Below are positions 6,271 through 28,192 of a DNA stretch of 34,387 bases, one piece after another. The stretch covers positions 1-34,387 of the forward strand of contig JASFGH010000001.1 in assembly GCA_050123865.1 (NCBI GenBank), in the 5' to 3' direction. The DNA is from Desulfobacterales bacterium (GTDB lineage: Bacteria > Desulfobacterota > Desulfobacteria > Desulfobacterales > JAHEIW01). Positions within the stretch are counted from its first letter, which is position 1. Each line of letters starts with the position of its first letter. Position numbers and translations under genes: made by a program. Under the pieces are notes generated by a model, which searched no databases, was not told where the DNA came from, and saw nothing but the letters and a program-made list of their open reading frames with translations.

Positions 6271-6878
6271 TTAGTTATCCAAAGCGGCTTGAATACGGAT
6301 ATACTCGCCAAGATTGTTTATGGTCAATAGGCCGACCAAACGCTTGTCACGTGTTACCGGCAAGATGTGACAGTTACACTCCTTTAATTTACTAAATGCG
6401 GTTTCCAGTATATTGTAGGCGTCGACTGTCGTAAAATGATGTTGCATCGCTTCAGATACTGGCGACCGCTGACCATTTCTTGATAAAGCCGCAAGTAAGT
6501 CAGACTGGGTTAAAACGCCCTCAACCGAACCGTTGTCCATAACAGGAAAGTCCTTTTGCGTTCCGGCCGATGTCAGCTCAACGACCTGCTGAAGCGTTTG
6601 ATTGCGGGTTAACGTTTCAAAATTGGTTAACATCGCGTTGGTTACGGGAATGCCAGAGATGGCTGATTTCATCTGCGTCCCGCCAGAGCCACCCATAATT
6701 TTTGACTGGGCTTATCCGGCATCTTTTCCAGACGCGCGACACCGCCGATGGGCAGCAAAATGATGTCACGGGTTTTAATCCCGTATTTTTTGGCTTTTAA
6801 TGCGTGCCCGAGCTCATGCAGGACAACGCAAGCAAATATGACCAGAATAAACGCAACACCCGCTACGGCAATTGTCCA
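6271..6878 (-). pseudogene. Remnant of a CBS-domain M50 site-2 protease: N-terminal HExxH fragment plus C-terminal CBS pair, membrane core deleted
   Basis: One minus-strand frame (6878-6669) reads [69 protein letters not shown]-stop. A second frame (6696-6271) carries a complete CBS pair (FPVMDNGSVEGVLTQSDLL...ILPVTRDKRLVGLLTINNLGEY). The first ~30 residues and the whole TM core with the second zinc-ligand motif are missing. Confidence 0.8.
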
Positions 6879-7347
6879 TCAGATGCTTGATGATGTACGC
6901 TTTGATCCAAAATGAGGCGTAGTATGAAAGTTTAACATTTTTTTCCGGGTTAAATTTTTCAACCGCCCTGATAAGTCCAAGGTTTCCTTCCTGAATCAAG
7001 TTGAGCAGATTTTGCATCCAAAGACTGCTGTAATCCATAGCAATCTTAACGACTAACCTGAGGTTTGACGTCACCAGCGTTTGAGCCGCCTGCTTGTCAC
7101 CAAGCTCCTTTACCTGCTTGAACAACGCCTGCTCTTCGCTTCTGGTCAGCAGCTGATATTTGCTGATCCCGATCAGGTAGCGTTGAAATGTATCCGTGTC
7201 ACCAGAAGCCTTTTTCACGCCGCCTTTCGGAGCAGAATTAAAGGATGGAGCAGGTTCTAAACGTTCTGAATTAAGCGATTTATCCTGCGATGTATCATCA
7301 TAAGTCTTCGACATTCCACCGGATTCTACTTGCATCTCGTTGAACAT
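6814..7347 (-). pseudogene. Truncated sigma-70-family (group 3, RpoH/SigB-like) factor: regions 1.2 and 2 only, fused out of frame to the M50 remnant
   Basis: ATG at 7347 is preceded by AAGGAAG. Region 1.2 reads FQRYLIGISKYQLLTRSEEQALF. Region 2 reads LVTSNLRLVVKIAMDY...[43 protein letters not shown]. Homology stops at about 6865 and the ORF ends in out-of-frame M50 sequence ([18 protein letters not shown]-stop). Regions 3 and 4 are absent. Confidence 0.8.
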
Positions 7348-7497
7348 GCCAACTTCCTTTTTAGGTTGCAGCTCGAAACAATTAATGTTGCCTTCAAGAC
7401 AGTAAGGTAGTTGTATTACATTAAAGAGATGATATTGATTGCCCGTCAAAGGGACGGGCAATACTTCGAGCGAGGCAGAAAAGTTCGGCCTACCATA

Positions 7498-7809
7498 CTA
7501 ACCTTTCTGGTTATGATCGTAACTTTTGCCGACGCCATGCATTTTCGGAAAAGTATTCCATTCACTTTCGCTGATGGAGCCGTCATTATCCATATCCAGG
7601 GCATTGAAGCTCCAGCGCAACTGCTCAGAATGGTATGCTGAGTATTCCTCAAACGAGACCATTCCATCTTTGTTACTGTCCATATCGCCTAGACCGGCGT
7701 TAAACATCGAATAACCGTGATGACCTGCGTTGACGGTTGTAGCCGCGCCGATTAGCGGGGCGATAGCTGAAAGAATGGCAAATGCAGGTATGATCAATGC
7801 GATATTCAT
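7498..7809 (-). CDS. Secreted two-EF-hand calcium-binding mini-protein
   Basis: 103 aa with signal peptide MNIALIIPAFAILSAIAPLIGAA. Two canonical 12-residue EF loops are present: DSNKDGMVSFEE and DMDNDGSISESE. Confidence 0.8.
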   Translation of the reverse strand: MNIALIIPAFAILSAIAPLIGAATTVNAGHHGYSMFNAGLGDMDSNKDGMVSFEEYSAYHSEQLRWSFNALDMDNDGSISESEWNTFPKMHGVGKSYDHNQKG

Positions 7810-7849
7810 AATTATCTCATATATTTAAGTAATCAAATGGATTTTTTGC

Positions 7850-7870
7850 TTATATTTTGTTTATATTTTG
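7850..7870. repeat. Tandem direct repeat ttatattttg (x2, 11-nt period) in the divergent promoter region
   Basis: 7850-7859 and 7861-7870 are identical. The repeat lies 41-61 nt upstream of the EF-hand gene start. Confidence 0.5.
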
Positions 7871-8089
7871 ATTAGATTCTTAGATCTGCCCGCACCGGCC
7901 CGGCGCGGTCAATAAGATGCGAGAGATGGAGCTTCAAATTAAAACTTGCGCAGAATTAGCAATATATGTGTTGCGGCAGGATAAATGGAAGGCCTGGACG
8001 TCTGGATGAGGACTGGTTGATTTTGCTGAGGAGAGAATTAATATAAGAACAGTTATCGATGAAGCCACTTGGAGTTTTGGATATTCGCA

Positions 8090-8959
8090 ATGATTTCAAA
8101 ACGCATTTTGAGGAAATCGGCATTATGCGCCCTGAGTCTGGGCGTGATATATACCCTCGCCTGCACATATTTGTGGGCGCGGCAGGGCCATTTTATCTTT
8201 GAGCCCCGACGAGAGATAAAAAAAACGCCGGCTATTCACCAACTTCCTTACGAAGATATATACGTGGCCGTAACGGATGGGAACGGAAACCCGGAACATA
8301 TTCATGGATGGTGGATCCCGGCTGACCCGCCTGAGGCCAAAGTGCTGCTGTACCTTCACGGCAGTGCTCTCAATGTCGGTGCCAATGTTGATGCGGCCCG
8401 GCGATTCAATGAGATCGGATATTCGATTTTTCTGGTATCCTATCGCGGATATGGCCTTAGTGATGGAGAATTCCCAACCGAAGAGCAAATGTACAGCGAT
8501 GCCTACGCGGCCTGGAATTATCTGGTCCATCAAAAAAGTATCTCCCCCGCAAGGATTTTCATTTACGGCCATTCAATCGGGGGTGCCATTGCCATTGATC
8601 TTGCCGTAGGTCACCCGGAAGCGGCCGGATTGATTGTGGAGGCATCGATGACGTCCATTATCGATGTGGCACGTCTTCAAAATACCTATCGATTTTTTCC
8701 GCTGGAACTCATTGTCGATCAAAAATTTGATTCCCTCTCGAAGGTCGGGCAATTAGAGCTGCCGGTATTGTTTATCCATGGCACGCAAGACACACGGGTT
8801 CCGCCTGAAATGAGCAGCCGTCTGTATGAAAATACGTTGTCACCGAAACGCATAAAATTCATCGATGGCGGCGGCCACAATAATTGCGGTACGGTGGGTG
8901 GCGAAGACTATGTGCGCACCATCATGGAATTCGAGACGCTTGTCAGCCAGTTTTCATAG
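8090..8959 (+). CDS. Alpha/beta-fold hydrolase (BEM46/S9-like), N-terminal membrane anchor
   Basis: ATG at 8090 (the track ORF starts at an upstream TTG, 8069). Nucleophile elbow GHSIGG; HGSALN oxyanion region; C-terminal IHGTQDTRVP and GGGHNN (Asp/His of the triad). Confidence 0.8.
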   Translation: MISKRILRKSALCALSLGVIYTLACTYLWARQGHFIFEPRREIKKTPAIHQLPYEDIYVAVTDGNGNPEHIHGWWIPADPPEAKVLLYLHGSALNVGANVDAARRFNEIGYSIFLVSYRGYGLSDGEFPTEEQMYSDAYAAWNYLVHQKSISPARIFIYGHSIGGAIAIDLAVGHPEAAGLIVEASMTSIIDVARLQNTYRFFPLELIVDQKFDSLSKVGQLELPVLFIHGTQDTRVPPEMSSRLYENTLSPKRIKFIDGGGHNNCGTVGGEDYVRTIMEFETLVSQFS

Positions 8960-9069
8960 ACACCATCTGCCGGCAGGACGCCCTTCCTTATATCTCGTGA
9001 ACGATCTCGTTTAATCGCCTTTTTTCACGACAATTCTTTCAGCTGAAAACAAATCTGGAAGTTCTCCAT

Positions 9070-9477
9070 TCAGACAAGCCACCTGGCAATAAAATAACCA
9101 GCAATGGCAACGGCCGTGCAAAGCGCCATCCCCCAGATGATATCGACCACCACGATGTTCAGGGGCCAGTCTTTGAGCAGGGCTAAATTGGTGAGCTCAT
9201 AGGTCATGTATGTGAAGAATCCAAAAAGCGCGCCGTACAGCATCGCGTGCTGCCATGAATCTCTGGTCACCGCGGGTATAGTGGCAAATATGAGAATCCC
9301 GGCAATGTAGAGGAGATAAAAAAGGATAGCAGCCGGCCAATTGACATTCGGGCTTAAAATATAGCCTAAATTTCTCTGATAAAACCCCTTGGCAATAACG
9401 CCCAGCCAAATCAGGTCAATAATGAAAAATACCGGTACGGTCAGAACATAGAGTTTTAAATAGAATAAGACGTTCAT
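9070..9477 (-). CDS. DUF2177-like polytopic membrane protein
   Basis: 135 aa with 4 TM helices. Resembles DUF2177 through IIDLIWLGVIAKGFYQRNLG...FGFFTYMTYELTNLALLKDWP. Confidence 0.6.
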   Translation of the reverse strand: MNVLFYLKLYVLTVPVFFIIDLIWLGVIAKGFYQRNLGYILSPNVNWPAAILFYLLYIAGILIFATIPAVTRDSWQHAMLYGALFGFFTYMTYELTNLALLKDWPLNIVVVDIIWGMALCTAVAIAGYFIARWLV

Positions 9478-9528
9478 GTAAACCTCATCAAAAGGGCTGT
9501 TGTATCAATTATAAAACCCATGGGATGA

Positions 9529-9975
9529 CTATTTTGCCGGGTTATCAAATGCCGAGCGCAAGCGCTCCACGCGTCGCCGGTTGACGCCAAAATCGTAATA
9601 GCCCGACCGCGATGCGGATCTCACATGGATGATGGGCTGCTGGGCAGAAAAGTAAAATTCGACATCATCGACAAACCGAAAGATCAGCGAGCGAAATTCG
9701 GCATGGAGAATTTTTTTTTCGACTGATACCAGGCGCACGCCCCGGGACTTCTTCAGGATGTCGATTAGCTTTTGCCGGGCATTTTCAAAGCTCCCCCTAT
9801 ACACAAAGGGTTTGATGAAATGCTGATCATCATTGCTCAGCGAAGAAACGCAGTTTGGGGAGTTCGGGCAGGGCTGCAATTTATCAGCATTGGTCACTGT
9901 GTCCGCTGCAACATGCGTGGTTCCGAATAGAACACACATGAAGATTGAAACATCTTTTAAGATCACGTTTTTCAT
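9529..9975 (-). CDS. DUF1499-like secreted protein
   Basis: The preferred start is ATG 9975 (MKNVILKDVSIFMCVLFGT..., a signal peptide), which overlaps the USP stop as ATGA. The motif CPNSPNCVSS...DDQHFIKPF is typical of DUF1499. Confidence 0.6.
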   Translation of the reverse strand: MKNVILKDVSIFMCVLFGTTHVAADTVTNADKLQPCPNSPNCVSSLSNDDQHFIKPFVYRGSFENARQKLIDILKKSRGVRLVSVEKKILHAEFRSLIFRFVDDVEFYFSAQQPIIHVRSASRSGYYDFGVNRRRVERLRSAFDNPAK

Positions 9976-10409
9976 ACGGGTATAATCAAGGTGGGAATTT
10001 CGGTGCATTTTATCACGCGGTCAGCAACACTGCCAAAGTCAAAATGTGCTTCGCTGCCCCGGCTGGCCATAACGACCATGTCGATGTTTTCTGTTTCAAT
10101 TAATTTGAGGATCTCTTTGGCAGGGTCACCGACACTGATGTGGCGAAAATAAAGCGGACACGCGTTTAAGAATTTCTCACAAATCTCATCCAGCCGCCCT
10201 TCAGCAGTCTGCTTTTCCCATTGCTTCATTTTTTCGATATCTTCAGGATCATTGTGACCGTAAGAGGCCCCGACGGCGGGGTAGTCTTTGAGCACATAGA
10301 GAATATGAATCTCTGCGATATATTTTTCAGCCAAGGATGTGACCACAGGCAGTGCTTTAGCAGCATTTTCAGAAAAATCTGTTGGCCACAAGATCTTTTT
10401 TATTTCCAT
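9972..10409 (-). CDS. Universal stress protein (UspA family)
   Basis: 145 aa; KKILWPTDFSENAAKAL...DMVVMASRGSEAHFDFGSVADRVIKCTEIPTLIIP; SD GGAGGAG upstream. Confidence 0.85.
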   Translation of the reverse strand: MEIKKILWPTDFSENAAKALPVVTSLAEKYIAEIHILYVLKDYPAVGASYGHNDPEDIEKMKQWEKQTAEGRLDEICEKFLNACPLYFRHISVGDPAKEILKLIETENIDMVVMASRGSEAHFDFGSVADRVIKCTEIPTLIIPV

Positions 10410-10652
10410 CGTTTTGATCTCCTCCGTTTTATTAAATGTCAGCTAATTTTCACAGTTTAATCAGAAACATAAATGCCGTTTGCTAAATTAATAACATGTT
10501 GGGGTTTAGCTTTGATAAGTCATAATAAGCATTTCTCTGCTTACCACCAAATAGAATTTTTACGATAGTGTTCAGCCGCAGTGAAATATCAAAAGATCAA
10601 TCTTTTCTGGATACGCCAGGATGTGTAATCGGTTCGGGTGAGAATTGAGGTT

Positions 10653-10726
10653 TGTGGTGGTCCAGCGGCATTCACTCAGCCAAGGAAAGGAGGTAAACTT
10701 AACTGAAACTGAACCACCACCACAAC
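10653..10726. other. Imperfect long hairpin built on (GGT)n/(ACC)n arms inside a 555-bp ORF-free spacer
   Basis: Arm tgtggtggtccag (10653-10665) pairs with ctgaaccaccaccaca (10709-10724), giving 11 of 12 bp. The 43-nt loop carries AAGGAAAGGAGGT (SD-like on +, anti-SD-like on -). The function is unknown and the stem is not statistically exceptional. Confidence 0.3.
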
Positions 10727-10964
10727 GGAGGCTTATGACATCTATACAGAGATGCAAGCGCATTAAAAGTTACATTTATTGCCAAATTAGGTGCAATATT
10801 CTGAGCTCGCCGCTGTCTCGTTACTTTCGGTCATTTTTGTAAATAAATCCCTGATATCGATCAGAAAAGCCATGCAGTGGGCGCCAAACCACCAGATTTC
10901 GACCAGTATTTGCAGCAGATCGGTATCCAAACAGTCATCGATAGGTTCTTCTTTCCATCAAAAT

Positions 10965-12251
10965 TTATCTTGCGGCTAAATCAGGGATCAACGACTCCCG
11001 CCGGCACATGGGTTTGGTAAACAGCATCTGCACATCGCCAATGTAGCACTCCGCGAAACCCGCTTCGCAATAGCTGAGATAAAAATCCCACATGCGAATA
11101 AACGCCTCTGAATAGTCCAGCCCTTTGACATCATCAATGTTTTTAAAGAATTGCTCCCGCCAGCAGGCCAGGGTTTTGGCATAATGCGGCGTGATATCTT
11201 CCAGATGAAAAAGACGCAGGTCGGTCACTCTGGCAATCGAAGATGCAATCGCTGCGATGGACGGAATGCAGCTGCCCGGAAAGATATAGCGCTTGATGAA
11301 GTCAACCGAGTGCTTGTGGCGCTCATACACCTGATCGGCGATGGTAATGGCTTGCAGCAGCATCATGCCGTCCGGTTTGAGCAGCCGACTGCAGGATTTG
11401 AAATAGACATCTAAATATTGATGCCCGACAGCCTCGATCATTTCGATCGAAACCAGTTTACTGTATTTCCCCTTCAAATCCCGGTAGTCTTTCTTCACCA
11501 GCTCAATGCGATCGGCAACGCCGGAATCGGCAATGCGCTTTTTGGCCAGTTCGAATTGCTGGTCGGAAATTGTCGTGGTGGTAACGCGGCAGCCGAAATT
11601 TTGAGCCGCATAAATGGCAAAACCGCCCCAGCCGGAGCCAATTTCGATTATGTCATCATGGGGGCCGAGTTTAAGCTTGCAGCAGATGCGGTCGTATTTG
11701 GCAAGCGAGGCGTCTTGCATACTGCTGTCGTCGCTTTCAAAAATGCCGCAGGAATAGGTTAGGGTTTCGTCTAAGAACAATCGATAAAAATCATTGCCCA
11801 AATCATAATGAGCCACGATGTTTTTACGACTGCCGCCACGAGTATTTTTTCGCAAAAAATACCAGATTTTATGAAAGGGAGTTGATATCTTCGACCAGCC
11901 CTTATCCAGGCGTTCAAAACTATCGTGATTTAAGGCCATAATCCGCAGTGCAGTTGTCAGATCGTCTGCCGACCACAAACCGCTCATGTAAGCTTGTGCC
12001 GTGCCGATGCTGCCCCCGAGGATGGCTTTGCTGTAAAATCGCGGATGATAAACGTTAATGACCGCCTCTAATGGAAAAGCAGTGCTGGTTCGACCAAAAA
12101 CATAACGCTGCGGGCCTTCAAAGATGGTGATTTGACCCCGCTTTAGTTTGCGCAGAATGCCAAAAAGAAGTTTGCGCGCCAGCCCGTCCGTCGGACGCGT
12201 CTGGAGGTTTTCCAATGCCAGTGCATCTGATGGCATAATTGATGTCGTCAT
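10965..12251 (-). CDS. Cyclopropane-fatty-acyl-phospholipid-synthase-like (CMAS family) enzyme, long form
   Basis: 428 aa. Motifs: HYDLGNDFYRLFLD, SAM motif IIEIGSGWGGFAIYAAQNFGCRVTTTTIS, LVSIEMIEAVGHQY. The start overlaps the DUF1365 stop (ATGA at 12248-12251). Confidence 0.9.
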   Translation of the reverse strand: MTTSIMPSDALALENLQTRPTDGLARKLLFGILRKLKRGQITIFEGPQRYVFGRTSTAFPLEAVINVYHPRFYSKAILGGSIGTAQAYMSGLWSADDLTTALRIMALNHDSFERLDKGWSKISTPFHKIWYFLRKNTRGGSRKNIVAHYDLGNDFYRLFLDETLTYSCGIFESDDSSMQDASLAKYDRICCKLKLGPHDDIIEIGSGWGGFAIYAAQNFGCRVTTTTISDQQFELAKKRIADSGVADRIELVKKDYRDLKGKYSKLVSIEMIEAVGHQYLDVYFKSCSRLLKPDGMMLLQAITIADQVYERHKHSVDFIKRYIFPGSCIPSIAAIASSIARVTDLRLFHLEDITPHYAKTLACWREQFFKNIDDVKGLDYSEAFIRMWDFYLSYCEAGFAECYIGDVQMLFTKPMCRRESLIPDLAAR

Positions 12252-13030
12252 CGTTGATACCTTCCTCCTGCATAATGTCGTTTCTTGGGATGAACAAACA
12301 CAGGGGTCTTTTTGAGCAATAACCGCAGCGCCTGCCAGTAGATCATGGTGGTGACCTTGGCCGTCATCAACGGATATTTAAGCAGTACATCGGTCAGAGC
12401 CCATTGACTGATCTCACGACGTTTCAAAGCCAGACTGGCATCAAATAGCAATTGTTCTTTCTCATAGTCGATCATATGGACGCGGATCGATGTATCGGGT
12501 TCGCGAAAGCGCCAATCATAATCGATATTCATATCGATAAACGGCGAAACGTGAAAAATCTTAGCAAAACGATGCCGCCGCCAGTTTTTGACCGGATGTT
12601 CGCTATCCTCGCGGTCTAAAACGTAGCAGTGAACTTCACCCCAGGGCGTGTTGTGTATTTCAACAATTATGGTTTCAACACTTGAATCGGTTTTATCGTA
12701 GCAGTAGTAAAAACTGGCCGGGTTGAAGCAATAACCGAAATAGCGTAAGTGGGTCAGCATCCGAATCGGCCCCCCGGGTGTACGCCCGGTCTTTTCGGCA
12801 ACCAGACCTCGAACCGCCACGTCGATCGGCTGCTGCGGATCGCCAAAATGATCTTTACGTCTAAAATAGGCGATGTTCGGCCGCTGATATGACCAGAGCG
12901 GATGGCCATCAAACACATGGGGCAATTCTGCCAGATCTAAATACATAAAAAACAGGCGGTACCGGAACATATTCGGCCTTGGCCTGGAACGGCGATGCCG
13001 AACAGAGCCCTCGTAAATGCAACTATGCAT
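12248..13030 (-). CDS. DUF1365 family protein
   Basis: 260 aa. YEGSVRHRRSRPRPNMFRYRLFFMYLDLAEL and HLRYFGYCFNPASFYYCY are characteristic DUF1365 motifs. SD AAGGA upstream. Confidence 0.85.
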   Translation of the reverse strand: MHSCIYEGSVRHRRSRPRPNMFRYRLFFMYLDLAELPHVFDGHPLWSYQRPNIAYFRRKDHFGDPQQPIDVAVRGLVAEKTGRTPGGPIRMLTHLRYFGYCFNPASFYYCYDKTDSSVETIIVEIHNTPWGEVHCYVLDREDSEHPVKNWRRHRFAKIFHVSPFIDMNIDYDWRFREPDTSIRVHMIDYEKEQLLFDASLALKRREISQWALTDVLLKYPLMTAKVTTMIYWQALRLLLKKTPVFVHPKKRHYAGGRYQR

Positions 13031-13185
13031 GCGTCATCCTTGCAAACATACCGCTTTTGCAGCTAAACTCTACAAAAATAAGCACAAAATGAATTTCGTC
13101 AGCAGGGTGATAGATTTTATTGCCGGACAAGCAGGATTCACAGTAGCCCGGCCAGTATCTGAATCAACTTCATTTAGAACTGATA

Positions 13186-14430
13186 TTAGAGAGATTTTCC
13201 GAAATGTTTTCCAACTACCAACGCACTATTGACCCCATCCTCGTGAAATCCATATCCCCAGTAAGCGCCGCAGAAATAGGTTCGCATGACACCGTTGATC
13301 TCCTCATGGCGATTTCTGGCAGCCAGGCTTTTGGGGTTATACACCGGATGATGGTAATGCATTTCTTTGATTTTCTTGGTCGGATCAACGGTGTTCGGCA
13401 AATTAAGGCTAACACAGTATTCGACCGGCGCCCCCAGGCTTTGCAAAATATTCATATCGTAAGTAAGGGCCACCCGTCCGGTCTCGGCTCGTGGAATATG
13501 GTAATTCCAGCTGGCCCAGGCCGCCTTTTTACTGGGTAAAACCGACTCGTCTGAATGCAGGACTGCATGATTGTCTTGATAGGGAATGGCTCCCAGGATT
13601 TCCTTTTCATTATCTGACGGATCTTCCAGCATAGCCAGCGCTTGATCACTATGGGAGGCAATGACCACCTGATCAAAGCGCTCTGGCTGACCATTTGCAG
13701 TCTGCACGCTAACATGGTCCGCATGGCGCCGGATGGATTTTACCGGGCAATTCAGACGGATGTGGTCGGCAAAAGACCGGGTCAATGGCCTTACGTATTG
13801 TTTTGAGCCCCCTTTGATAACCAGCCATTGAGGTTGGTTGCGCACATTTAAAAAACCATGGTTTTTAAAAAACTGCGCAAAATAAAGCGCCGGAAACTCA
13901 TTGAATTTAACCGGATCAGCCGACCAGATGGCCTCGCCCATGGGAATGATAAAATGCTCGATAAACAGCCGCGAAAACTTTTTGGCGGTCAAAAAATTTT
14001 CGAGTGTCAACGTGTAGTCATCGGTTTTCAAAAGGTCTTCGGATTCGCGTCGAAATTTAAAAATATCGTATATCATCCGATAAAACGCTGGCCGCAGCAG
14101 GTTCTGGCGCTGGATGAAAAGTGAATTCAAGCTGCTGGGGCTGAATTCCAATCCGGTCTTTTTACACTGCACGCTAAAGCTCATATTGGAAGGTTGCCAG
14201 GCAATACCCAGACGCTTCATTAACCGAAGAAAATTGGGATAGGTTTTCTCGTTGAATACAATGAATCCGGTGTCCACCGCATATGTTTCGCCATCTAAGC
14301 TAACATCGATGGTATGCGTGTGACCGCCGACATAGTCTTCGGCTTCAAATACAACCAGTTCATGCTCATCACTGAGCAGGTAGGCAGCCACCATGCCGGC
14401 TATACCAGTTCCGACAATAGCGATTCGCAT
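13186..14430 (-). CDS. FAD-dependent amine-oxidase-like oxidoreductase (COG2907 type; UfaD-like fatty-acyl desaturase candidate)
   Basis: 414 aa. N-terminal dinucleotide fold MRIAIVGTGIAGMVAAYLL...VVFEAEDYVGGH; C-terminal FCGAYWGYGFHEDG. Confidence 0.85.
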   Translation of the reverse strand: MRIAIVGTGIAGMVAAYLLSDEHELVVFEAEDYVGGHTHTIDVSLDGETYAVDTGFIVFNEKTYPNFLRLMKRLGIAWQPSNMSFSVQCKKTGLEFSPSSLNSLFIQRQNLLRPAFYRMIYDIFKFRRESEDLLKTDDYTLTLENFLTAKKFSRLFIEHFIIPMGEAIWSADPVKFNEFPALYFAQFFKNHGFLNVRNQPQWLVIKGGSKQYVRPLTRSFADHIRLNCPVKSIRRHADHVSVQTANGQPERFDQVVIASHSDQALAMLEDPSDNEKEILGAIPYQDNHAVLHSDESVLPSKKAAWASWNYHIPRAETGRVALTYDMNILQSLGAPVEYCVSLNLPNTVDPTKKIKEMHYHHPVYNPKSLAARNRHEEINGVMRTYFCGAYWGYGFHEDGVNSALVVGKHFGKSL

Positions 14431-14467
14431 TTAGGCCTCTCTTTGATAAATTCGCATTATTGAGAAG

Positions 14468-15455
14468 TTAACCCGTGCCGGCAACCACCCTATTTCGGTT
14501 CCGCAAGCCTTCCGGCAAGCCCCGCAGATCCCAGACAATGCCCATCCATGAGAAGATCTTGAGGAAATAGTAGGTGATATCAATTTCCCACCAGTAAAAC
14601 CCCTGGCGCACGGTGATGGCATAATGATGGTGATTGTTATGCCATCCTTCACCCAATGTAATCAGCGCTAACAGGGCATTATTGCGACTGGTATCCTGGG
14701 TATTATAGCGTCGGCTGCCGAACATGTGATCAAAGGAGTTAATGGTCACTGTGCCGTGAAAAAGCGCCACTGAAGAAATAAAAAAGCCCCAGATGAGCAA
14801 CTGCAGGCCGTTGGTTCCCAGTTGAGGCGTATAAATCTTAAGAAGATGGCCGCCGACAAACAAGGCGACCGCCAAAAGAATGGGGATGACAATGTCAAAA
14901 CGATTGATCCAGCGCAGCTCCGGAAACCGGGCCCAATCTTTGACATATTGCATTTTGGTTGGAAAATTCGCCGGGGACGTCAACCACCCGATGTGGCTCC
15001 AGATAAATCCATGCTGGCGGGGCGAATGGATATCTTTTTCTGTATCTGCGAAGCGGTGGTGATGGCGATGATGCGCTGCCCACCACAGCGGCCCGCGCTG
15101 GACGGAAGAATTGCCAGAACCGATTGGTTTTAAACGTGTTATGGGAAAAATAACGATGGTAGAATCCGGTGATGGCAAACATGCGAATAAAATAAAGCAC
15201 CACTGCCGTTACAACGGCAAACCAGCTCCATCCTACCCAGATGACGCCCAGGCACATCAGGTGCATGATGACAAACGGCAGGATGCGAAACCAATCGACT
15301 TGTTTGAGGTCGGTGCTGGAGGTTACTTCGGCCGCTGCCTCGGTATCGAACCAGCGCCAGAGGGCCAGCGGAAGAGTAGATTTTTTTTCAGAATGCTTTT
15401 CAGTGCGCATATCTAAAACTTTTGTAAAGTAAAAGCCGACAACACATTTAAACAT
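14468..15455 (-). pseudogene. Membrane acyl-CoA/acyl-lipid (delta-9-type) desaturase disrupted by a short out-of-frame deletion
   Basis: The N-part frame (15455 or 15410 down to about 15114) ends ...GFYHRYFSHNTFKTNRFWQF. The C-part frame (from about 15115) starts GNSSVQRGPLWWAAHHRHHHRF... and runs to GEGWHNNHHHY. All three His boxes are intact. The two frames share the same nucleotides at 15113-15120, and about 5-8 residues of the usual spacer are missing. Confidence 0.8.
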
Positions 15456-15611
15456 TGGAAGCTATTTCAGGAAGGGTATCGCACATAGTTAATTAATTTT
15501 CACGAAAATAACAACACTTAATACAGGTTGACATGAAGAGGAGAATCAAACCAGGTTCAGCGATCAGAATGGCACCGCAAGAAGATTTGAATTCAATTTT
15601 TGTCGTGCGTA

Positions 15612-16207
15612 TTACCTGAAAGTCCTTACAGCGCTCATACCTCCATCAACATGAATGATCTGACCGGTCATCCAGGCACTGGCCTCCGACAGCAAATGGA
15701 CGGCGACCTGAGCAATTTCTTGCGGTGTTCCGATGCGCTTTGCCGGATGACGCTCTGCGGAAGCCTTGCGTTTTTCTTCACTGGACAATAGGCCCTGTGC
15801 CAGAGGTGTATCCGTTAGTGAAGGCGCAATCGCATTCACACGAATACGGGGTGCAAATTCAGCCGCCAAAGAGCGGGTCAAGCCCTCCACCGCCGCCTTG
15901 GCGCCGGCGACGGAAGCATGGAAAGGCATGCCTATTTTGACAGCCACGGTGCTGAACAGAACAATAGCAGCTCCGGTTGTCGATTTTTTTAAGCAACGAT
16001 GCCATCCAACACGTCCGGCAGCCCTTCGAAATTAAGCGAATCCGCCTGCACATCGAGCGTTAGATGATGCAAACCGTCCAGATGGGTTAAGGCATCATTG
16101 GAACGCGACCCCACATAAACGGTGCTATTTTTTTTGTGGAGCGCTTTGGTAATCTCCAGACCGATACCGGAGCTGCCGCCAACGATATAAAAATTTTTTG
16201 TGTCCAT
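15612..16207 (-). pseudogene. Short-chain dehydrogenase/reductase (SDR) with an internal ~100-nt out-of-frame deletion
   Basis: ATG at 16207 is preceded by GAGGAGGG. The N-part MDTKNFYIVGGSSGIGLEI...LPDVLDGIVA hits TAA at 15989-15991. A second frame resumes directly with LKKSTTGAAIVLFSTVAVKIGMPFHASVAGAKAAVEGLTRSLAAEF...HVDGG. About 35 residues between the LDGxV(Y) strand and the substrate-serine strand are absent. Confidence 0.75.
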
Positions 16208-16299
16208 GTGCTCCCTCCTCAAATGATCGGCCAGCGATGGTCAAGTGGCGACGGAAAATTGAGTGATGACAAACCGATCTGTGATTATAAATTTCGCGT

Positions 16300-18338: not shown

Positions 18339-18730
18339 CTGGAGGGATAAGGGCTGTGCCAACATCACAATTGAATACGCGAATCGAACAACTGTGTGAA
18401 GACCTCATTGCTGAACAACGGGGTGATCCGGCTGCCTTTCCGGCTGAACTCAACCAGGTGGTATTTCGTGTTTATCGAACATTTATTGCTGGCTATCTTA
18501 TCTTTGTACGGCAAAACGAGTCCAAACCGGTAGACTGGTTACCCGAAAAGCTTGTTATTGATTGGGAGCTGGTTGACGGCATGCGCCATTTTTTCTCTGA
18601 CTATCAGCATATCATCAGATCTTTTTTAAACTTAAACCGGCAACTTAACCCGCTTCGTAACATAGACAGAGACAAACAGCCTGGATTGTACCGGGACCTG
18701 GTTTCCGAAATAATTGCCAGCACGGCTTAG
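18335..18730 (+). CDS. Hypothetical protein, 131 aa (orphan operon gene 3)
   Basis: GTG start overlapping the upstream stop. No recognisable motif, TM segment or signal peptide. Confidence 0.5.
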   Translation: MTGGIRAVPTSQLNTRIEQLCEDLIAEQRGDPAAFPAELNQVVFRVYRTFIAGYLIFVRQNESKPVDWLPEKLVIDWELVDGMRHFFSDYQHIIRSFLNLNRQLNPLRNIDRDKQPGLYRDLVSEIIASTA

Positions 18731-18752
18731 AGAACATGTCGATCATCTGCGC

Positions 18753-19913
18753 TTAAAGCGGATCGCGCAGTGCTTCGGCGTAACCCGTCAATTCTGCGTA
18801 CCCGTCCGCCTTTAGAGGTTTTTTTGCGGCCGTACCGGTTGCCGCTACGCTACCTTCCCAGTAAATAATGCCCGTGCTTGCCGTTGTGACCATTTCCTGA
18901 TCGAGTAAATTGGCAGCAATGTTCAGTTCAATCGCAAGCGGCGCGATATTCAGCCGCCAGGCCACCGGATAAACCGCGCCGGATCGGGGGCTTTTCCACT
19001 GGTCCAGGACAGTAACCCTAAAGTCTTTTCCGGTTAGATGCCGGGCAACCCCCCATCGATCAATAAAGGTTCCACTGGATGCCGGGTTTAACTGCCCGTT
19101 CTGGTCTCTGAGCATGTACAGCATGAGCTCGGTTTGATCGGACAGCTGCAAGCTAAACCAGTCCCAGCCGACAATGTCCGCCTCTAATGATGCCGTACTG
19201 TATTCATGGTCCATCCAGCTCAGGCCTTCAACGGAAAATGTCTTGTCGTCGATCCTCAAAATTCCATTGGTTATCAGGCGCGTCAGCGAATAATAACAGC
19301 TTGCCCTTTCGGCAGTCGACCCCTTGCGGCTGTACCCCGCCTGCCCGTGTAAGGCGGGCGGCTTGGCCGGCTGCAACCTCAGCTCGAATGCAAAATCCGC
19401 CGTGCGCGCTTTTAGCGTGTGGCTGTCAGCACCGATGGTGGCCGACCAATCTTTGATAAATACAGTCGTTTCAAATGCTGTTTGAGCGATGCCTGCCATA
19501 TCCAAAGCACCTCTGGCCATTTGTTCGGTATGGCGGTGCTTTTTTTTATTCAGATCTGATATGGCGGCATGCCCGGCATAAATCTGCTGGGTGCGCCAGG
19601 CAGACGATGGCCGCGGCCAATCCTGAATGCTGTCGCTTGGGCTCATCTGGTTGCGAAAAAACGTTAACTGGAAACCATAACGCTCGCCTGATTCAGTTTG
19701 TAAATTGCCGGTATAATACCACCATTCGATGCGGTACCCCGGATGGGGTCCATGGTCTTTTGGGAATGTTAAATGACAGGGCTCGGTGACCGCTAAAAAG
19801 CCCTCCTCCTCTGCAGCCATCACTTGATGGCCGGTTACGGCAGTCATCAGAAAAAGACACGCAAGCGCAAAGGCAATTTTTACAGATCTTTGCTTCATCT
19901 TTTTTATGATCAT
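18753..19913 (-). CDS. AttH-like / CrtC (hydroxyneurosporene synthase)-fold lipocalin-like secreted protein
   Basis: 386 aa with signal peptide KIAFALACLFLMTAVTGHQVMA. The N-terminal motif FPKDHGPHPGYRIEWWYYTGNL...YGFQLTFFR is typical of AttH/CrtC-family proteins. It lies downstream of a FtsX-type ABC transporter. Confidence 0.8.
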   Translation of the reverse strand: MIIKKMKQRSVKIAFALACLFLMTAVTGHQVMAAEEEGFLAVTEPCHLTFPKDHGPHPGYRIEWWYYTGNLQTESGERYGFQLTFFRNQMSPSDSIQDWPRPSSAWRTQQIYAGHAAISDLNKKKHRHTEQMARGALDMAGIAQTAFETTVFIKDWSATIGADSHTLKARTADFAFELRLQPAKPPALHGQAGYSRKGSTAERASCYYSLTRLITNGILRIDDKTFSVEGLSWMDHEYSTASLEADIVGWDWFSLQLSDQTELMLYMLRDQNGQLNPASSGTFIDRWGVARHLTGKDFRVTVLDQWKSPRSGAVYPVAWRLNIAPLAIELNIAANLLDQEMVTTASTGIIYWEGSVAATGTAAKKPLKADGYAELTGYAEALRDPL

Positions 19914-22635: not shown

Positions 22636-23339
22636 GGAAGGCCCGTAATCATACCGTCTTTTAGACCAATCTTGACCGACGCCATTTCATCAGCAAGTGT
22701 GCTGTGGGTCGCAATCAAAACAGTGCGTTTCCATTTTTGATTCAGTTCTGCCAGCAGATCCATAACAATTTGTCCGTTATGACTGTCAAGATTTCCAGTG
22801 GGCTCATCGGCCAGGATAATGGCAGGATCATTTATGAGGGCTCTGGCAATGGCGGTGCGTTGCATCTCGCCGCCGGAAAGTTGGGCTGGAAGGTGATTTA
22901 AACGGCTTTCAAGCCCTAACCATTGAAGCAGCTCCATGCCTTTGGGGTGGCTTTCGGCCACCGATTTGCCGGCCAGAAGCGCCGGCAGACAGATATTTTC
23001 GAGGACATTTAGCGTTGGCAGCAGATTAAAAGACTGAAAAACCATGCCGACGACCTGCCGGCGAAAGTGGGTCAACTGGCTGTCGGTTGAATTGTTTAAA
23101 TCATGCCGGGCGACTTTCAACTCGCCGGCGGAAGGCCGATCAAGGCCCGCCAATAAAGAAAGAAGTGTACTTTTCCCGGAACCACTGTTGCCTTTAAGCA
23201 CCACTAGCTCGCCAGCAGCTATCTCTAAATCGACCTGGCTGATCCCGACGACCTCGCTGTTACCCAGTTTGTAGATGCGGGTGAGGCCTTTGGCCGAGAT
23301 TACAGTTTGAGGTTTTTCATGGGTCATGGTGGATTTCAA
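22632..23339 (-). CDS. ABC transporter ATP-binding protein (LolD/MacB-type, AttE-like)
   Basis: Walker [10 protein letters not shown], signature LSGGEMQR, Walker [13 protein letters not shown]-loop ATHS. Confidence 0.9.
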
Positions 23340-23345
23340 AAAAAG

Positions 23346-24002
23346 TTATTTAGCCAGAAAGCCCTGTTGAACGGCATCATCAATGAGGCTTGAAACATAT
23401 TCCCATAATAGGTGTGAGCCGTCGCTAACCGGCTGCATTCGCGCAATGACCTGATTTTTTTGGATACCGTATTTTTGCCAGGTGTGGCCGCGGGTAAAAT
23501 AATTATGTAAAAATGGCTGCACTCGATCCAGGGCGTTGGCGAATTTCGATTCCGGTGTATCTTTGGCCTCATATTCATCCCATAGAGCCCGCAACGCATT
23601 GGCCTGATCTTGCGGCAGGATGTTAAAGATGCGCTCAGCCGCTTTATTTTCGCGCTTTTGTTGATCCCGGCCGCCGACTTCATCATAGCAGTATGTGTCG
23701 CCGGCGTCGATTTCAACCAGATCGTGTATCAGCAACAATTTGATCACCTGCAGGAGATCCAAATTCTCATCTTCGGCATATTCTGAAAATATGAGCACCA
23801 GCAGTGCGATGTGCCAAGAGTGCTCGGCCGAATTTTCCTGGCGGGAAACATCCAGCAGAGTGGTTCTACGATCAACTTTTTTAAGCCGATCCGCTTCCAG
23901 TATAAATTCGATCTGGCGTTTGAGACGCTTACTACCCACAGACCGGGTTTTACTTAGTGGTGTTTCAACACCGATTTGGCTTTCACCGCCTGCTTTCAAC
24001 AT
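23346..24002 (-). CDS. HD-domain phosphohydrolase (YfbR-like 5'-nucleotidase fold)
   Basis: The H...HD...D metal motif reads ENSAEHSWHIALL...LLLIHDLVEIDAGD. The gene sits 6 nt upstream of the ABC ATPase gene. Confidence 0.75.
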   Translation of the reverse strand: MLKAGGESQIGVETPLSKTRSVGSKRLKRQIEFILEADRLKKVDRRTTLLDVSRQENSAEHSWHIALLVLIFSEYAEDENLDLLQVIKLLLIHDLVEIDAGDTYCYDEVGGRDQQKRENKAAERIFNILPQDQANALRALWDEYEAKDTPESKFANALDRVQPFLHNYFTRGHTWQKYGIQKNQVIARMQPVSDGSHLLWEYVSSLIDDAVQQGFLAK

Positions 24003-24040: not shown

Positions 24041-25255
24041 TTATTTTTCGCGGGTATATCCCCATACGGCGTACACCGGATCGGAAAACAGCATTTGCGA
24101 GGCGTACTTATCATTAGCCGGTCGCGGCAGCCCGCGCATGGAATAAGTTTGTAGATTAGCATATTGACCGGATTTTAGGAAGAATTCAAGTACCAAACCC
24201 AAACGCTCAAATTCGTGTAACTCAGACCAGATGCGTATGGCTTTGGGTGGAAACCAGCGGTTGGAGAACGTGACGCTAAAAATACCACCCGGCTTAAGAA
24301 CACGATTGATTTCTTCGAAAACTTCAAATGGATGAACCAAATATTCAACCGAAACCGTGCAGATCGCCGCATCGAAAGCGTTATCATCAAAAGGCAGTTG
24401 CGGATTGTCGTTCAGGTCGTGAACACAAAAATCGGACAACCGATTGTTGGCCTGCAGTTCTTCTTTATTCATTCCAAGGCCGGTGACGGATTCTATAGGG
24501 AGGTCCTCAGGAAGATGAGACACCCAGCTGCTCATCAAATCCAGGACTTTGCTTTCGGGCTGCACTAGTATGCCGTAAAGCCGACTGATGGTACCAATGG
24601 CCGTATCATCGATGTGTTGCACCAGGCGAGGCTGGTCATAAAACTTTTCGTCGGGGCTTTCGTCCGCCCTTCGGAAGGGATCATCAGCAAAAAAATTGGT
24701 GGACCTGCCGTTTATGCGAGACTGCATCCCCGGCCCGCTGAGAGTGGTCTCGGCCCAGTCAATACTGGTACCGCCGTGTTCTTCAAATTTCTCGCGTACG
24801 TCTTTGATGGCCGCCATAAATGTAAGGCTTTTATCCGAAAGGGGATGATTCGCATCTGCCTTGATGCCCTCACCATTGGTAGTTACACAGCGAAAAGGGG
24901 TCATGTTATTCGGATAGACACCCGCTACTTTGGTGAGAATCCCCAGTGGATAAAATCGGCCGAATCTCGGCTGGATCGGCTCTGTCTGAGGTGAAAGGGG
25001 TGTAATCTGACGTTGATGGAATGCATAAATGCTGCGTTCGTCTCTGGCCGCCACTAAAGTGCCCGGTTTGGCCTCCATTGCAACCTGATCACCGGTTTGT
25101 TTACCGTGCAATTCATCGAGTAATTGTGGAGGCAGGAAATCCCGCCATATGTTAACTCTCTGACCGTAGTAACGGTCGGTATGCTGAATGCCGTTGTGCG
25201 TAAAAGACGCGCTAAATTCGACACTGGCCAGGACATCTTCAGATATTTTTTCCAT
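24041..25255 (-). CDS. Two-domain protein: N-terminal ~200 aa of unknown (possibly FKBP-like) fold fused to a class I SAM-dependent methyltransferase
   Basis: 404 aa. The C-terminal half has KVLDLMSSW..., FDAAICTVSVEYLVHP and VLKPGGIFSVTFSNRWFP (Methyltransf_11-like). The N-terminal half (VEFSASF...RVNIWRDFLPPQLLDELHGKQTGDQV) only loosely resembles SlyD/FKBP. Confidence 0.7.
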   Translation of the reverse strand: MEKISEDVLASVEFSASFTHNGIQHTDRYYGQRVNIWRDFLPPQLLDELHGKQTGDQVAMEAKPGTLVAARDERSIYAFHQRQITPLSPQTEPIQPRFGRFYPLGILTKVAGVYPNNMTPFRCVTTNGEGIKADANHPLSDKSLTFMAAIKDVREKFEEHGGTSIDWAETTLSGPGMQSRINGRSTNFFADDPFRRADESPDEKFYDQPRLVQHIDDTAIGTISRLYGILVQPESKVLDLMSSWVSHLPEDLPIESVTGLGMNKEELQANNRLSDFCVHDLNDNPQLPFDDNAFDAAICTVSVEYLVHPFEVFEEINRVLKPGGIFSVTFSNRWFPPKAIRIWSELHEFERLGLVLEFFLKSGQYANLQTYSMRGLPRPANDKYASQMLFSDPVYAVWGYTREK

Positions 25256-25421
25256 TACATTTTCCTTTTTCCATATGTGGTCATATAATGTTTTTAAGGC
25301 GTAATCATTTTACGATAATGATTAATTCGACAAGTGCAATTCGGAAATTCATAAACGGGTCATTTAGTGAGGGGTAAAAGCAGGGTGATAAAATCGAACA
25401 CTGAAGTGCGCTTGCAAGTCT

Positions 25422-26794
25422 TTAGAGCCGGTTTAAATCTTGTTTGTAGGATTGCGCCTGTTTTAGAATGCGCCGCTGATCTTTTGGATTTTTGCGATGC
25501 CAGGTTCGGTACATCATGCCGATACGGGGATTATTTTGCAAGTTATCATGATGCCGGGCAAAGAAATCCCAGAACAGACAGTTAAACGGACAGGTCGACT
25601 CTCCGTATGCTTTGGTACGATCGTAGCTGCACTGACTGCAGTAGTCGCTCATTTTGTTGATGTAGTTTGCTGATGACACATAGGGTTTTGTGGCAACCCG
25701 ACCTCCGTCCGCCCACTGGCTCATTGCCCGAGTATTGGGCATCTCTACCCATTGGATGGCATCGATGTATACACCCAGATACCATTCTTCGACCTGGTCG
25801 GGATGCACGCCGGCCAGCAGCGCGAAATTTCCGGTGACCATCAGACGTTGAATATGATGGGCATAAGCATGCTCTAATGATTGACCAATAGCAGTCTGCA
25901 TGCATTTCATTTTCGTCTGGGCAGTCCAGTAAAAATCGGGCAAGTCAGCCTTGTGCTTGAAAAAATTCATGTCTCCCAATTTCGGCATCAACGTCCAATA
26001 GACACCGCGCATGTATTCACGCCATCCTAAAATCTGGCGCACGAAGCCTTCAATCTGTTGAATCTTGATGGTGCGTTTTTGCTTTTCCCAGGTTCGAATG
26101 GCCGCTTTGATGACTTCCAGCGGATGCAGCATTTTCGTGTTGAGCGCAAATGAAATGCGGGCATGGAATAGCGCCCAGCTTTTGGTGGTCATGGAATCCT
26201 GATAGGTTCCGAATTCTTTGAGCCCATCTTTCAAAAAGGCATTCAACAGCGCCCTGGCCTGGGATCGGTTGATCGGCCAGATCAGATTTTGTGGATTAAT
26301 GGCACCAAAGTTTTGACACCATCGTTTTGGATCATTTGATGGAGATTGCGGACGTCGTTTCGAAACAGCTTGGGCTTTGGAATCGGAACTCGGCCATCAT
26401 AGCGTCTGCGGTTTTCAACATCAAAGTTCCAGCGCCCGCCCTGCGGCTTGTCGCCATCCATTAAAATATCGTGCCTTTTGCGCATCTGGCGATAAAAGGA
26501 TTCCATCAGGTAGCGCTTTTTGCCGGCAAAAAAATTCTTGAAATCCTGGCGCCGGGTCAAAAAATGCTCGGTATCAACCGCCTCCCCGGGAACCGAAAGC
26601 GATTTGACCAGCTTGCGCAGCTCAACATCCAGGCGGTATTCATCGGGCAGCAAATACTCGAAACGTTCAAACTGCTGTTTTTTGAGCAGCTGTTTAATGT
26701 TGCCCGCGATGGTTTGTTGATTTTTGGGATCATCCAGCCGCAGATAAATAACCGTGTGCCCTTTTTCTTCTAGTTTTTCTGCAAAAGCGCGCAT
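25422..26794 (-). pseudogene. FeS-BCP / (6-4)-photolyase-type cryptochrome-photolyase (PhrB/CryB family, COG3046), 5'-truncated and frameshifted
   Basis: The N-part (26794-26282) starts at MRAFAEKLEEKGHTVIYLRLDD, which normally lies ~55 residues into the family. The C-part (open frame from about 26313 to 25422) contains GTYQDSM, IEGFVRQILGWREYMRGVYW, HAYAHHIQRLMVTGNFALL and the four Fe-S cysteines (MKCMQ, DYCSQCSYD, STCPFN). The frames are joined by a 1-nt shift in an A4 run (plus-strand T run 26311-26314). Confidence 0.8.
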
Positions 26795-26803
26795 GGCGGC
26801 ATG

Positions 26804-28192
26804 TTATTTCCTGCTTTGTCTTGCCAGAGCATCCACCTTTTTGACATAGGCCTGAATATCACATTTACGCTCCAGCCCGGAGGCTGCCATATACCGGATT
26901 TTGCCGAAAATCGGCCGCTCGAACCAGGCCCGATCGTGAACCCCGAAGACCCAGGCTACACCGGTATAAGAATTGGCGTCGCGGCCGTCCAGAAAATATT
27001 TGTTGTTGATGGCCTGGGTTGTTTTAAAGGCCTGCTCCGGGGATGGAGACCATTCCAGGATTTTTTTACCCCAGTACATGCGCATGTAATTGTGCATAAA
27101 GCCGGTAGCGGTCATCTCGCGCATGGCCGCATTCCAATAATCATCGTGGGTTTGAGCATTTTCCAGCTGCCGGCGGGTGTAAGTGTGCTCGCGCTTGTCT
27201 TTTTTATGCTCGCTCAACGTCTTTTGGGCCCAGTTCGGCAGGCACCGGTATGAATCATAGTTTGGGTTATAGAAAACAAAATTCATGGCCAGCTCACGGC
27301 GCACGATCAATTCCTCTATAAACGCTTCCCGGGCTGCCTTAAAACGTTTGTCGGTGCCTTGCACCTTCAACGCCAGATACAAGGGAGAAATCTGGCCAAA
27401 ATGCAAATATTTGCTCACGTGGGAAACATCATCGGTCTGGGGCTGGTTGCGGTTGTCGACATAGTTTTTAAGCCGATGCCGTAAAAAATCGGCAAAAATC
27501 TTACATACCTGAGCGGTGCCGCCTTTAAAAAATTGGCTGACCGGCGCAATACTTCTATTCAGCGACATTTTCTTTAAAACAGCGTTGATATCGCTCAGAT
27601 CGATTCCTTCGACCCGGAACTGCAGAGAAGATTTTTTTATTTTCGTTGGTTTGAGTTTAATGAGGTAATCTTTGAGATGCTTGTGTATTTTTGGCCGTAT
27701 GGTGCGAGCCGCATATTCGGCTTTGTTTGAAACCACTTCCAAAGGCACCACCACATCACTTTCGACCTGGACCACCCGACAATCGGCGTCTTTGGCGACC
27801 TTTTTGCGCCACTGCTTTTGATGCCGGAGATAACCGCGGTCGCACACAATTAGGGACGCTTTTTGGCCGGTGGCAAGGGCCACATCAGCCGGATCACCTT
27901 TTTGAACGACCATTTTGATGCTGCGCTTGCCCAGTGCCGCCTGGGTTTCCTGAAGCCCTTCCAGCATGAAGGTGTAATGGCGCAAATTGGCTTCCGGATA
28001 ATCATCCATCAGCCCGAAAACCACTAATACGCCCTGCCCCATTTGGTTGGCCTGCTGCACCGCGTATTCCAGGGCATGGTTATATTCGGCCCGCTGGGAT
28101 TGCTGCATCCAATAGAGCACAAAATTACCCCGACGTAGATCAAGATCGTTTAAAAACTGAATCCGCGTATCCTGTATGTCGTTAGATGCCAT
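26804..28192 (-). CDS. phr: Class II CPD deoxyribodipyrimidine photolyase
   Basis: 462 aa. Motifs: FVLYWMQQSQRAEYNHAL, YLHFGQISP, FMHNYMRMYWGKKILEW, DGRDANSYTGVAWVFGVHDRAW. Confidence 0.9.
   Translation of the reverse strand: MASNDIQDTRIQFLNDLDLRRGNFVLYWMQQSQRAEYNHALEYAVQQANQMGQGVLVVFGLMDDYPEANLRHYTFMLEGLQETQAALGKRSIKMVVQKGDPADVALATGQKASLIVCDRGYLRHQKQWRKKVAKDADCRVVQVESDVVVPLEVVSNKAEYAARTIRPKIHKHLKDYLIKLKPTKIKKSSLQFRVEGIDLSDINAVLKKMSLNRSIAPVSQFFKGGTAQVCKIFADFLRHRLKNYVDNRNQPQTDDVSHVSKYLHFGQISPLYLALKVQGTDKRFKAAREAFIEELIVRRELAMNFVFYNPNYDSYRCLPNWAQKTLSEHKKDKREHTYTRRQLENAQTHDDYWNAAMREMTATGFMHNYMRMYWGKKILEWSPSPEQAFKTTQAINNKYFLDGRDANSYTGVAWVFGVHDRAWFERPIFGKIRYMAASGLERKCDIQAYVKKVDALARQSRK

Follow-up and report, generated by a model that had tools for sequence, protein, structure and literature searches.

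Six lesions in five genes of an uncultured Desulfobacterales population: probable deletion-biased decay of dispensable accessory genes

A stretch of 34,387 bp (the window, meaning the whole of the DNA analysed here) forms one complete contig of a metagenome-assembled genome (MAG), deposited at NCBI as 'Desulfobacterales bacterium' (proteins MGD9172513-43, locus tags PVF29_000xx) and also present in JGI/IMG. Five of its genes, encoding an RpoH-type sigma factor, the adjoining M50 protease with a CBS pair, an SDR, a membrane fatty-acid desaturase and an FeS-BCP (6-4) photolyase, are broken by six lesions. In this study, we found that these lesions are probably genuine deletion alleles of a natural uncultured Desulfobacterales population, a sulfate-reducer-like sediment bacterium, produced by ordinary deletion-biased decay of dispensable accessory genes. 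Lesions 1, 2, 4, 5 and 6 were found again in independent assemblies, and lesion 3 is carried by the window contig alone.

Gene content was determined from an open reading frame (ORF) map together with Pfam and NCBIfam scans, and 176 comparison loci (L-numbers) were fetched. Each lesion was checked and sized in MAFFT or BLAST alignments to Desulfobacterales MAGs and metagenome contigs in which the syntenic genes are intact. Intact syntenic orthologues were present in L001-L010 for the desaturase and SDR, in L002 and L009 for the sigma factor and M50 protease, and in L082-L098 and L173 for the photolyase. An initial annotation of the window had listed six lesions, and all were confirmed at or within a few bases of where it had placed them. 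The broken genes and their lesions are as follows.

6866-7347, minus strand: remnant of the RpoH-type sigma-70 gene (Pfam Sigma70_r2; alignment to L002)
6866-6870, minus strand: lesion 1, the sigma-M50 junction (alignment; same junction in L163, L164 and L165 with 0 gaps)
6271-6866, minus strand: remnant of the M50 protease (site-2 protease type) with a CBS pair (Pfam Peptidase_M50 and CBS; alignment to L002)
6678-6679 (junction 6679/6678), minus strand: lesion 2, internal frame-shifting M50 deletion of 355 nt (alignment; L163, L164 and L165)
14468-15455, minus strand: broken membrane fatty-acid desaturase (Pfam FA_desaturase PF00487, 69.7 bits; alignments)
15111-15120 (junction about 15116/15115), minus strand: lesion 3, 23-nt desaturase deletion (gap against L169)
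15612-16207, minus strand: SDR broken by a 118-nt deletion (Pfam adh_short_C2; alignments; same position as Rhodobacter RSP1087)
15994-15995 (junction 15995/15994), minus strand: lesion 4, the SDR junction (alignment; recurs in L167 and L170)
25422-26801, minus strand: remnant of the FeS-BCP/CryPro (6-4) photolyase (PDB sequence search; Pfam DPRP)
26801-26802 (junction 26802/26801), minus strand: lesion 5 (alignment; recurs in L161, L162, L171 and L172)
26310-26311 (junction 26311/26310), minus strand: lesion 6, a 1-nt frameshifting deletion (AAAAC-TTTGG; alignment; L161, L162, L171 and L172 gap-free)

The odd-sized fragment proteins of the window were found again on other contigs. Independent contigs from four JGI metagenomes, two Logan assemblies and three ENA assemblies were 99.8-100% identical to the window and gap-free over lesions 1, 2, 4, 5 and 6. 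The contigs compared at the nucleotide level were the following.

L163, JGI 3300035186: window 4085-12053, 9 mismatches, 0 gaps; lesions 1 and 2
L164, JGI 3300035141: window 3986-10206, 0 gaps; lesions 1 and 2
L165, Logan SRR11700060: 100% identical, 0 gaps; lesions 1 and 2
L167, Logan SRR11697745: 100% identical, 0 gaps; lesion 4
L170, ENA ERZ650196: identical stretch over the junction, 0 gaps; lesion 4
L161, JGI 3300035142: window 24971-27173, 4 mismatches, 0 gaps; lesions 5 and 6
L162, JGI 3300035141: 100% identical, 0 gaps; lesions 5 and 6
L171, ENA ERZ650205: identical stretch over both junctions, 0 gaps; lesions 5 and 6
L172, ENA ERZ27294438: 2 mismatches, 0 gaps; lesions 5 and 6

Two contigs of JGI 3300042731, compared by gene calls, carried the same fragments (211 + 141, 72 + 105 and 170 + 274 amino acids); the gene lengths mirror lesion 2, and the pair of 72 and 105 amino acids is that of the SDR. 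Lesions 1, 2, 4, 5 and 6 were common to every assembly of the population that covers them. Judged from these sequences, they are true alleles of a natural population.

An alternative is that assembly collapse or sequencing error made the apparent deletions, which the initial annotation had raised for the set as a whole and had favored for lesion 6 as a typical sequencing error. The source is indeed a metagenome-assembled contig, the low-coverage ENA contigs are visibly mosaic, and lesion 3 occurs in the window contig only, with the intact allele in two other assemblies. Since the same gap-free junctions of the other five lesions were obtained from other samples by the JGI, Logan and ENA pipelines, both kinds of artefact are ruled out for five of the six, including the 1-nt frameshift, which is the single 1-nt indel in the 34 kb and is itself recurrent. 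Homology at the junctions is at most 4-7 nt, much shorter than the k-mers of any assembler, and long repeats, insertion sequence (IS) elements and tRNAs are absent from the window, so an assembler could not have made these joins. We therefore consider an artefactual origin of the deletions extremely unlikely.

In relatives L002 and L009, an intact RpoH-type (sigma-32 subfamily) sigma gene adjoins an intact gene for an M50 site-2 protease; in L009 the M50 gene (17803-18507 of the locus) is without the CBS pair. The sigma factor of L002 scored 261 bits against NCBIfam NF005143 of the sigma-32 subfamily (cutoff 241). Compared with this intact pair, one deletion in the window took sigma regions 3-4 and the start of M50, and a second took the M50 core. 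Lesion 1, with the junction sequence GACAATTG joined to CCGTAGC, removed about 680 nt relative to L002 and L009: regions 3-4 of the sigma factor, the spacer between the genes and some 41 codons of M50. The two genes were joined out of frame. The sigma remnant retained region 2 and continues out of frame into M50 up to a stop at 6814; a full RpoH-type sigma factor has regions 2, 3 and 4 and a score above the cutoff, whereas the remnant has region 2 only. The M50 remnant retained HELGH and lost ~41 codons from its start and 355 nt from its center. The FNMIPAFPMDGGR segment of the L002 M50, which holds the third zinc ligand in the PMDGG motif, falls inside this 355-nt deletion, so that of the two M50 hallmarks, HExxH and a downstream PxDGG with the third zinc ligand, the window remnant has the former only. 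From their adjacency, the sigma factor and the protease may be functionally linked.

The desaturase retained all three of its His boxes (HRYFSH, HHRHHH and HNNHHH), which together with the Pfam match point to the membrane fatty-acid desaturase family. Lesion 3 sits between boxes 1 and 2. In the intact allele, the 23-nt unit TGGCAGTTTTGGTTTGTTGTACT is flanked by two TGGCA repeats. L169 (JGI 3300035186) differed from window 16001-14407 by one mismatch and the 23-nt insertion, and it encodes an intact desaturase of 336 amino acids. The same was observed for a JGI 3300042731 contig; the intact proteins are P0179 and, for this contig, P0182. The 186-amino-acid desaturase fragment was found on the window contig only. 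Lesion 3 is probably a polymorphic or private variant, an error of the window contig being less likely.

The SDR deletion, which the initial annotation had recognized with a size of about 100 nt, measured 118 nt in alignments, a loss of about 39 residues of the SDR core. In L176, a low-coverage ENA contig, the 5' half of the SDR is 99% window-like and runs into the intact 118 nt, with a mosaic structure downstream. An intact SDR allele thus appears to exist in a very close relative. It had been proposed that full-length alleles at these sites would speak against real gene loss. Such alleles were found for the desaturase in the same population and for the SDR in the near relative, and they point to polymorphism, not artefact.

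The three ENA contigs of about 1x coverage (L170, L171 and L176) were mosaic, with window-identical stretches abutting stretches of 10-17% divergence; either low-coverage assembly produced strain chimeras, or the contigs are natural recombinants. The switch of L176 to divergent sequence coincides exactly with the SDR deletion junction. A comparison of nonsynonymous and synonymous rates (dN/dS) between the window and L171 on the shared pseudogenes was dropped because L171 is mosaic, an identical stretch being followed by one of 17% divergence. Between the SDR and the desaturase (window 15456-15611), L003, L005, L006, L170 and L176 carry an extra NAD-binding (NmrA/epimerase-like) gene of about 0.95 kb, and the window, L001, L002, L004 and L007 are without it.

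The photolyase remnant matched PDB entries 7ykn (E=1.4e-143) and PhrB, 4dja (E=3.5e-121; aligned chain residues 54-496). Known FeS-BCP/CryPro members are PhrB of Agrobacterium (4dja), CryB of Rhodobacter (3zxs) and 7ykn. Compared with these, the window gene matches strongly from PhrB residue 54 on, is without the N-terminal ~54 residues, and is split by the frameshift into ORFs of 170 and 274 amino acids, while its Fe-S cysteines are conserved. The repaired translation contains the cysteine motifs KCMQ, YCSQC and TCPFNC; from the alignment to 7ykn and prior knowledge, we take these cysteines to be the four [4Fe-4S] ligands. The family match and all four cysteines were found, and a complete ORF was not, owing to the 5' truncation and the 1-nt frameshift. 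The gene thus looks like a remnant of the FeS-BCP family and not a working member, and a full-length enzyme would be impossible. Lesion 5 removed about 245 nt, within a range of about 230-250 nt, namely the spacer after the class II photolyase stop and the first ~54 FeS-BCP codons; a TGCC microhomology is seen in relatives. When an intact photolyase allele was sought, the 513-amino-acid members of the 90% cluster proved to be relatives of about 90% identity, and L173, which encodes the cluster representative, had only about 80% DNA identity to the window.

All exactly measured deletions (355, 23, 118 and 1 nt) are frame-shifting. With intact orthologues at each locus and essential parts lost or the frame broken, the five genes may be regarded as pseudogenes. 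Where relatives cover the window, reciprocal tblastn detected no broken genes beyond these five. The initial annotation had described the catalytic motifs as intact. This held for HELGH, the three desaturase His boxes and the photolyase Fe-S cysteines, but the third-zinc-ligand motif of M50 is deleted. In the public annotation, fragments appear as separate proteins at 15989-16207, 15612-15929, 14468-15178, 25422-26246 and 26282-26794, under names such as 'hypothetical protein PVF29_00105', a 236-amino-acid 'acyl-CoA desaturase' and a 170-amino-acid 'cryptochrome/photolyase family protein'.

Several neighbors of the broken genes are intact.

10965-14430, minus strand: intact FAD amine-oxidase-like (UfaD-like), DUF1365 (UfaO-like) and CFA-synthase-like genes (Pfam; private-substitution test; comparison with RSP1091-1089)
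13186-14430, minus strand: Amino_oxidase (Pfam)
12248-13030, minus strand: DUF1365 (Pfam)
10965-12251, minus strand: CMAS (Pfam)
26804-28192, minus strand: intact class II CPD photolyase (NCBIfam phr2 score of 531 bits, slightly short of the curated 550; Pfam DNA_photolyase; alignment)

The class II photolyase lies directly upstream of the broken FeS-BCP gene, and YbgA and a second CFA-synthase-like gene are also intact. Tight 4-nt overlaps of neighboring genes, noted at the outset, are real. We counted private substitutions, that is, window-only amino-acid changes at sites invariant in all relatives. The numbers of private changes per invariant sites were as follows.

Broken genes: desaturase 5/212; SDR 2/129; FeS-BCP photolyase 16/325
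Intact genes: amine-oxidase-like 3/295; DUF1365 3/168; CFA synthase 6/266; class II photolyase 10/304; FtsX 8/539

The broken genes showed at most a mild, non-significant excess of private substitutions, and their remaining coding sequence is still protein-like. Because the excess is at most mild, the inactivations are recent relative to the 15-20% divergence from relatives, which agrees with the initial view of recent inactivation by clean deletions. They nonetheless appear to be older than the spread of the population across the sampled metagenomes. The UfaD/UfaO-like, CFA-synthase-like and class II photolyase genes are intact and look constrained, which suggests that the decay is patchy and not module-wide. 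Relaxed selection on a whole O2/light-defence island, as first proposed, does not fit, since these genes and YbgA are intact without an excess of private substitutions. That the lesions are confined to stress modules carries little weight, as about 20 of the ~34 window genes were judged to lie in such modules.

The adjacent UfaD-like, UfaO-like and SAM-dependent methylase genes are consistent with a UfaD/UfaO cluster, the families being those of PMC7380195. In Rhodobacter sphaeroides, RSP1091-1087 is a singlet-oxygen response operon (UfaD, UfaO, CFA-synthase-like, RSP1088 and the SDR RSP1087) for furan fatty acid synthesis, in which the SDR is not needed for that synthesis (PMC7380195). The window shares with it the amine-oxidase-like, DUF1365, CFA-synthase-like methyltransferase and SDR genes in one string. 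The SDR, which is the dispensable member in Rhodobacter, is dead in the window, and the UfaD/UfaO-like genes survive. Unlike the Rhodobacter operon, the window has the SDR upstream and an extra membrane desaturase, DUF4174 and DUF1295, and it has no ChrR/ECF sigma pair, an RpoH-type sigma gene lying nearby instead; a role in furan fatty acid synthesis is predicted. The extended fatty-acid-modifying cluster comprises lipocalin, chalcone-isomerase-like, MFS, DUF1295, two CFA-synthase-like, DUF1365, FAD amine-oxidase-like, desaturase, SDR and DUF4174 genes.

The region is variable across the clade. The window has its nearest relatives, of about 80-85% nucleotide identity, among uncultured MAGs and contigs of sediment or estuary metagenomes, and a scan of species-representative genomes returned only relatives of at most 92% identity. 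A host-associated or long-cultured strain, as first proposed, finds no support: the window is a MAG contig, and its close relatives come from sediment metagenomes. A 17.6-kb stretch (about 1150-18750) that contains lesions 1-4 is absent from L092-L099. L005 is without the sigma-M50-EF-hand-hydrolase block and one small gene (window 6185-9118 and 18325-18741). L082 (ENA OVOC01 NODE-17) has three independent deletions of about 844, 620 and 425 nt against window 15906-16908, 17960-18778 and 23330-23806, which take the SDR 5' half and DUF4174, two small genes, and most of an HD-domain gene. In L087, a frameshifting deletion of about 62 nt affects a NAD-binding/DUF2867 gene (window 31557-31623). 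About five disrupted genes were found in ~270 kb of orthologous sequence from 19 relatives by manual curation of tblastn flags, compared with five in the 34-kb window. The window thus appears to be locally enriched in broken genes, yet the process would be common to the clade.

In the more distant relatives L092-L095, L098 and L099, about 0.5 kb separates the OmpA-like gene (window 324-1148) from the AttH/CrtC-like gene (window 18753-19913), so that the intervening 17.6 kb of the window is a variable island. Its edges showed no tRNA, integrase or flanking repeat.

The six lesions form three tight pairs (P ~0.002 under uniform placement). M50 and the photolyase each received two hits, and within one gene string the desaturase lesion, which is polymorphic, follows 0.9 kb downstream of the SDR lesion, which is fixed. 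These double hits, and the position of the desaturase lesion just downstream of the fixed SDR lesion, have the look of neutral second hits in dead genes. Deletion-biased decay of pseudogenes is a general principle in bacterial genomes. The window resembles it in that inactivation was mainly by deletions and without mobile elements, that second hits are present, and that the remnants are coding-like and thus recent. It differs from typical cases in that the organism is free-living in sediment and not host-restricted, the decay is patchy within one accessory region, and one lesion is polymorphic.

On the mechanism, spontaneous deletions of 1 to about 680 nt, without homology or with 4-7 nt of microhomology, would have inactivated the genes for the RpoH-type sigma factor, the adjacent M50 protease, the SDR, the membrane desaturase and the FeS-BCP (6-4) photolyase. 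The deletions may have arisen by replication slippage or illegitimate end-joining. A search for an IS element, tRNA, Rfam family or long repeat in the window or at the junctions returned none that could have mediated the deletions, in line with the initial annotation, and microhomology of 4-7 nt was present at only two junctions (TGGCA at lesion 3 and TGCC at lesion 5). The TGGCA direct repeats, a classic slippage substrate, indicate slippage or illegitimate joining for lesion 3, and TGCC suggests it for lesion 5; for the other lesions, whose junction homology is not resolvable, the same routes may have acted. Dead genes would then collect further hits. Individually dispensable genes would decay in a region of fluid gene content, with the functional core of the module kept under constraint. 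No new mechanism or family is involved.

Three further explanations accept the deletions as real. Loss of the RpoH-type sigma/M50 pair may have silenced its targets (SDR, desaturase and FeS-BCP photolyase), which then decayed neutrally. Several stress-type genes nearby are broken along with the regulator pair, the lesions are clustered non-randomly, and the sigma-M50 pair is present in only some relatives (L002 and L009). However, the amine-oxidase-like, DUF1365 and CFA synthase genes, which share a string with the SDR and desaturase, are intact and constrained, L005 keeps an intact SDR and desaturase although it lacks the sigma-M50 block, and a scan for RpoH-type promoters detected none upstream of the broken genes. 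We consider this course of decay unlikely. That the decayed set marks the former regulon of the sigma/M50 pair, with the population as a natural knockout and the UfaD/UfaO core and class II photolyase controlled independently, is quite unlikely. Inactivation may also have been selected in dark anoxic sediment, as a cost saving or as removal of a harmful activity. In agreement with selection, the five recurrent lesions are found in all covering assemblies, and the SDR was hit independently in L082. Neutral decay accounts better for the second hits in dead genes and for the polymorphic lesion. All five genes are still intact in most relatives from comparable sediments, and there is no signal that separates selection from drift; adaptive loss is decidedly unlikely. 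Finally, the deletions could have been left by recombination with foreign DNA (homology-facilitated illegitimate recombination) and not by simple slippage. In L176, the change from window-like to L009-like sequence falls exactly on the SDR junction, and the region is mosaic among relatives, with identity to L082 varying from 74 to 90% along the window. On the other side, the ranking of closest relatives is unchanged over every junction, the ~1x coverage of L170, L171 and L176 makes strain chimeras conceivable, and the 23-nt deletion lies between direct repeats, as for slippage. Recombination scars are thus very unlikely.

Some observations weigh against ordinary decay of real alleles as the preferred explanation. 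Resting on one contig, lesion 3 could be a minor allele or an error. Support for the junctions comes from assemblies and not from reads, so it gives no allele frequencies within samples. The JGI samples and the Logan runs may go back to identical or related samples, in which case the replication is partly across assemblers and not across sites. Enrichment of broken genes was judged against orthologous regions of relatives only. The private-substitution test is low-powered and does not prove neutral evolution of the remnants.

Ordinary deletion-biased decay would make the window a snapshot of ongoing gene loss in a free-living sediment bacterium, with some lesions fixed, one polymorphic, and second hits in dead genes. 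Accessory parts of the light/oxygen-defence gene set would have been lost and its core kept. If the regulon explanation were true instead, the natural knockout would show which light/oxygen-defence genes depend on the sigma/M50 regulator in Desulfobacterales. In practical terms, deletions in MAG contigs, even a 1-base frameshift, can be validated in the absence of reads when independent public assemblies share the junctions.

The window is otherwise gene-dense and of Desulfobacterales type. Besides the fatty-acid-modifying cluster, it contains the sigma gene adjoining the M50/CBS protease, an ABC exporter, and a photolyase group of class II CPD photolyase, FeS-BCP photolyase and YbgA. An inverted repeat pair of 57 nt (81% complementary) lies at 283-339 and 31992-32048, both copies being intergenic. 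Compared with shuffled sequence, folding is much more favorable for one copy (z = -4.3) but not for the other; the repeat was absent from the 176 fetched loci. Downstream of the CFA-synthase-like gene, a stretch of about 310 nt (10652-10964) is about 83% conserved with relatives. Within it, JGI called an ORF of 47 amino acids at 10787-10930 on the minus strand; the stretch may encode a small protein or have a regulatory role.

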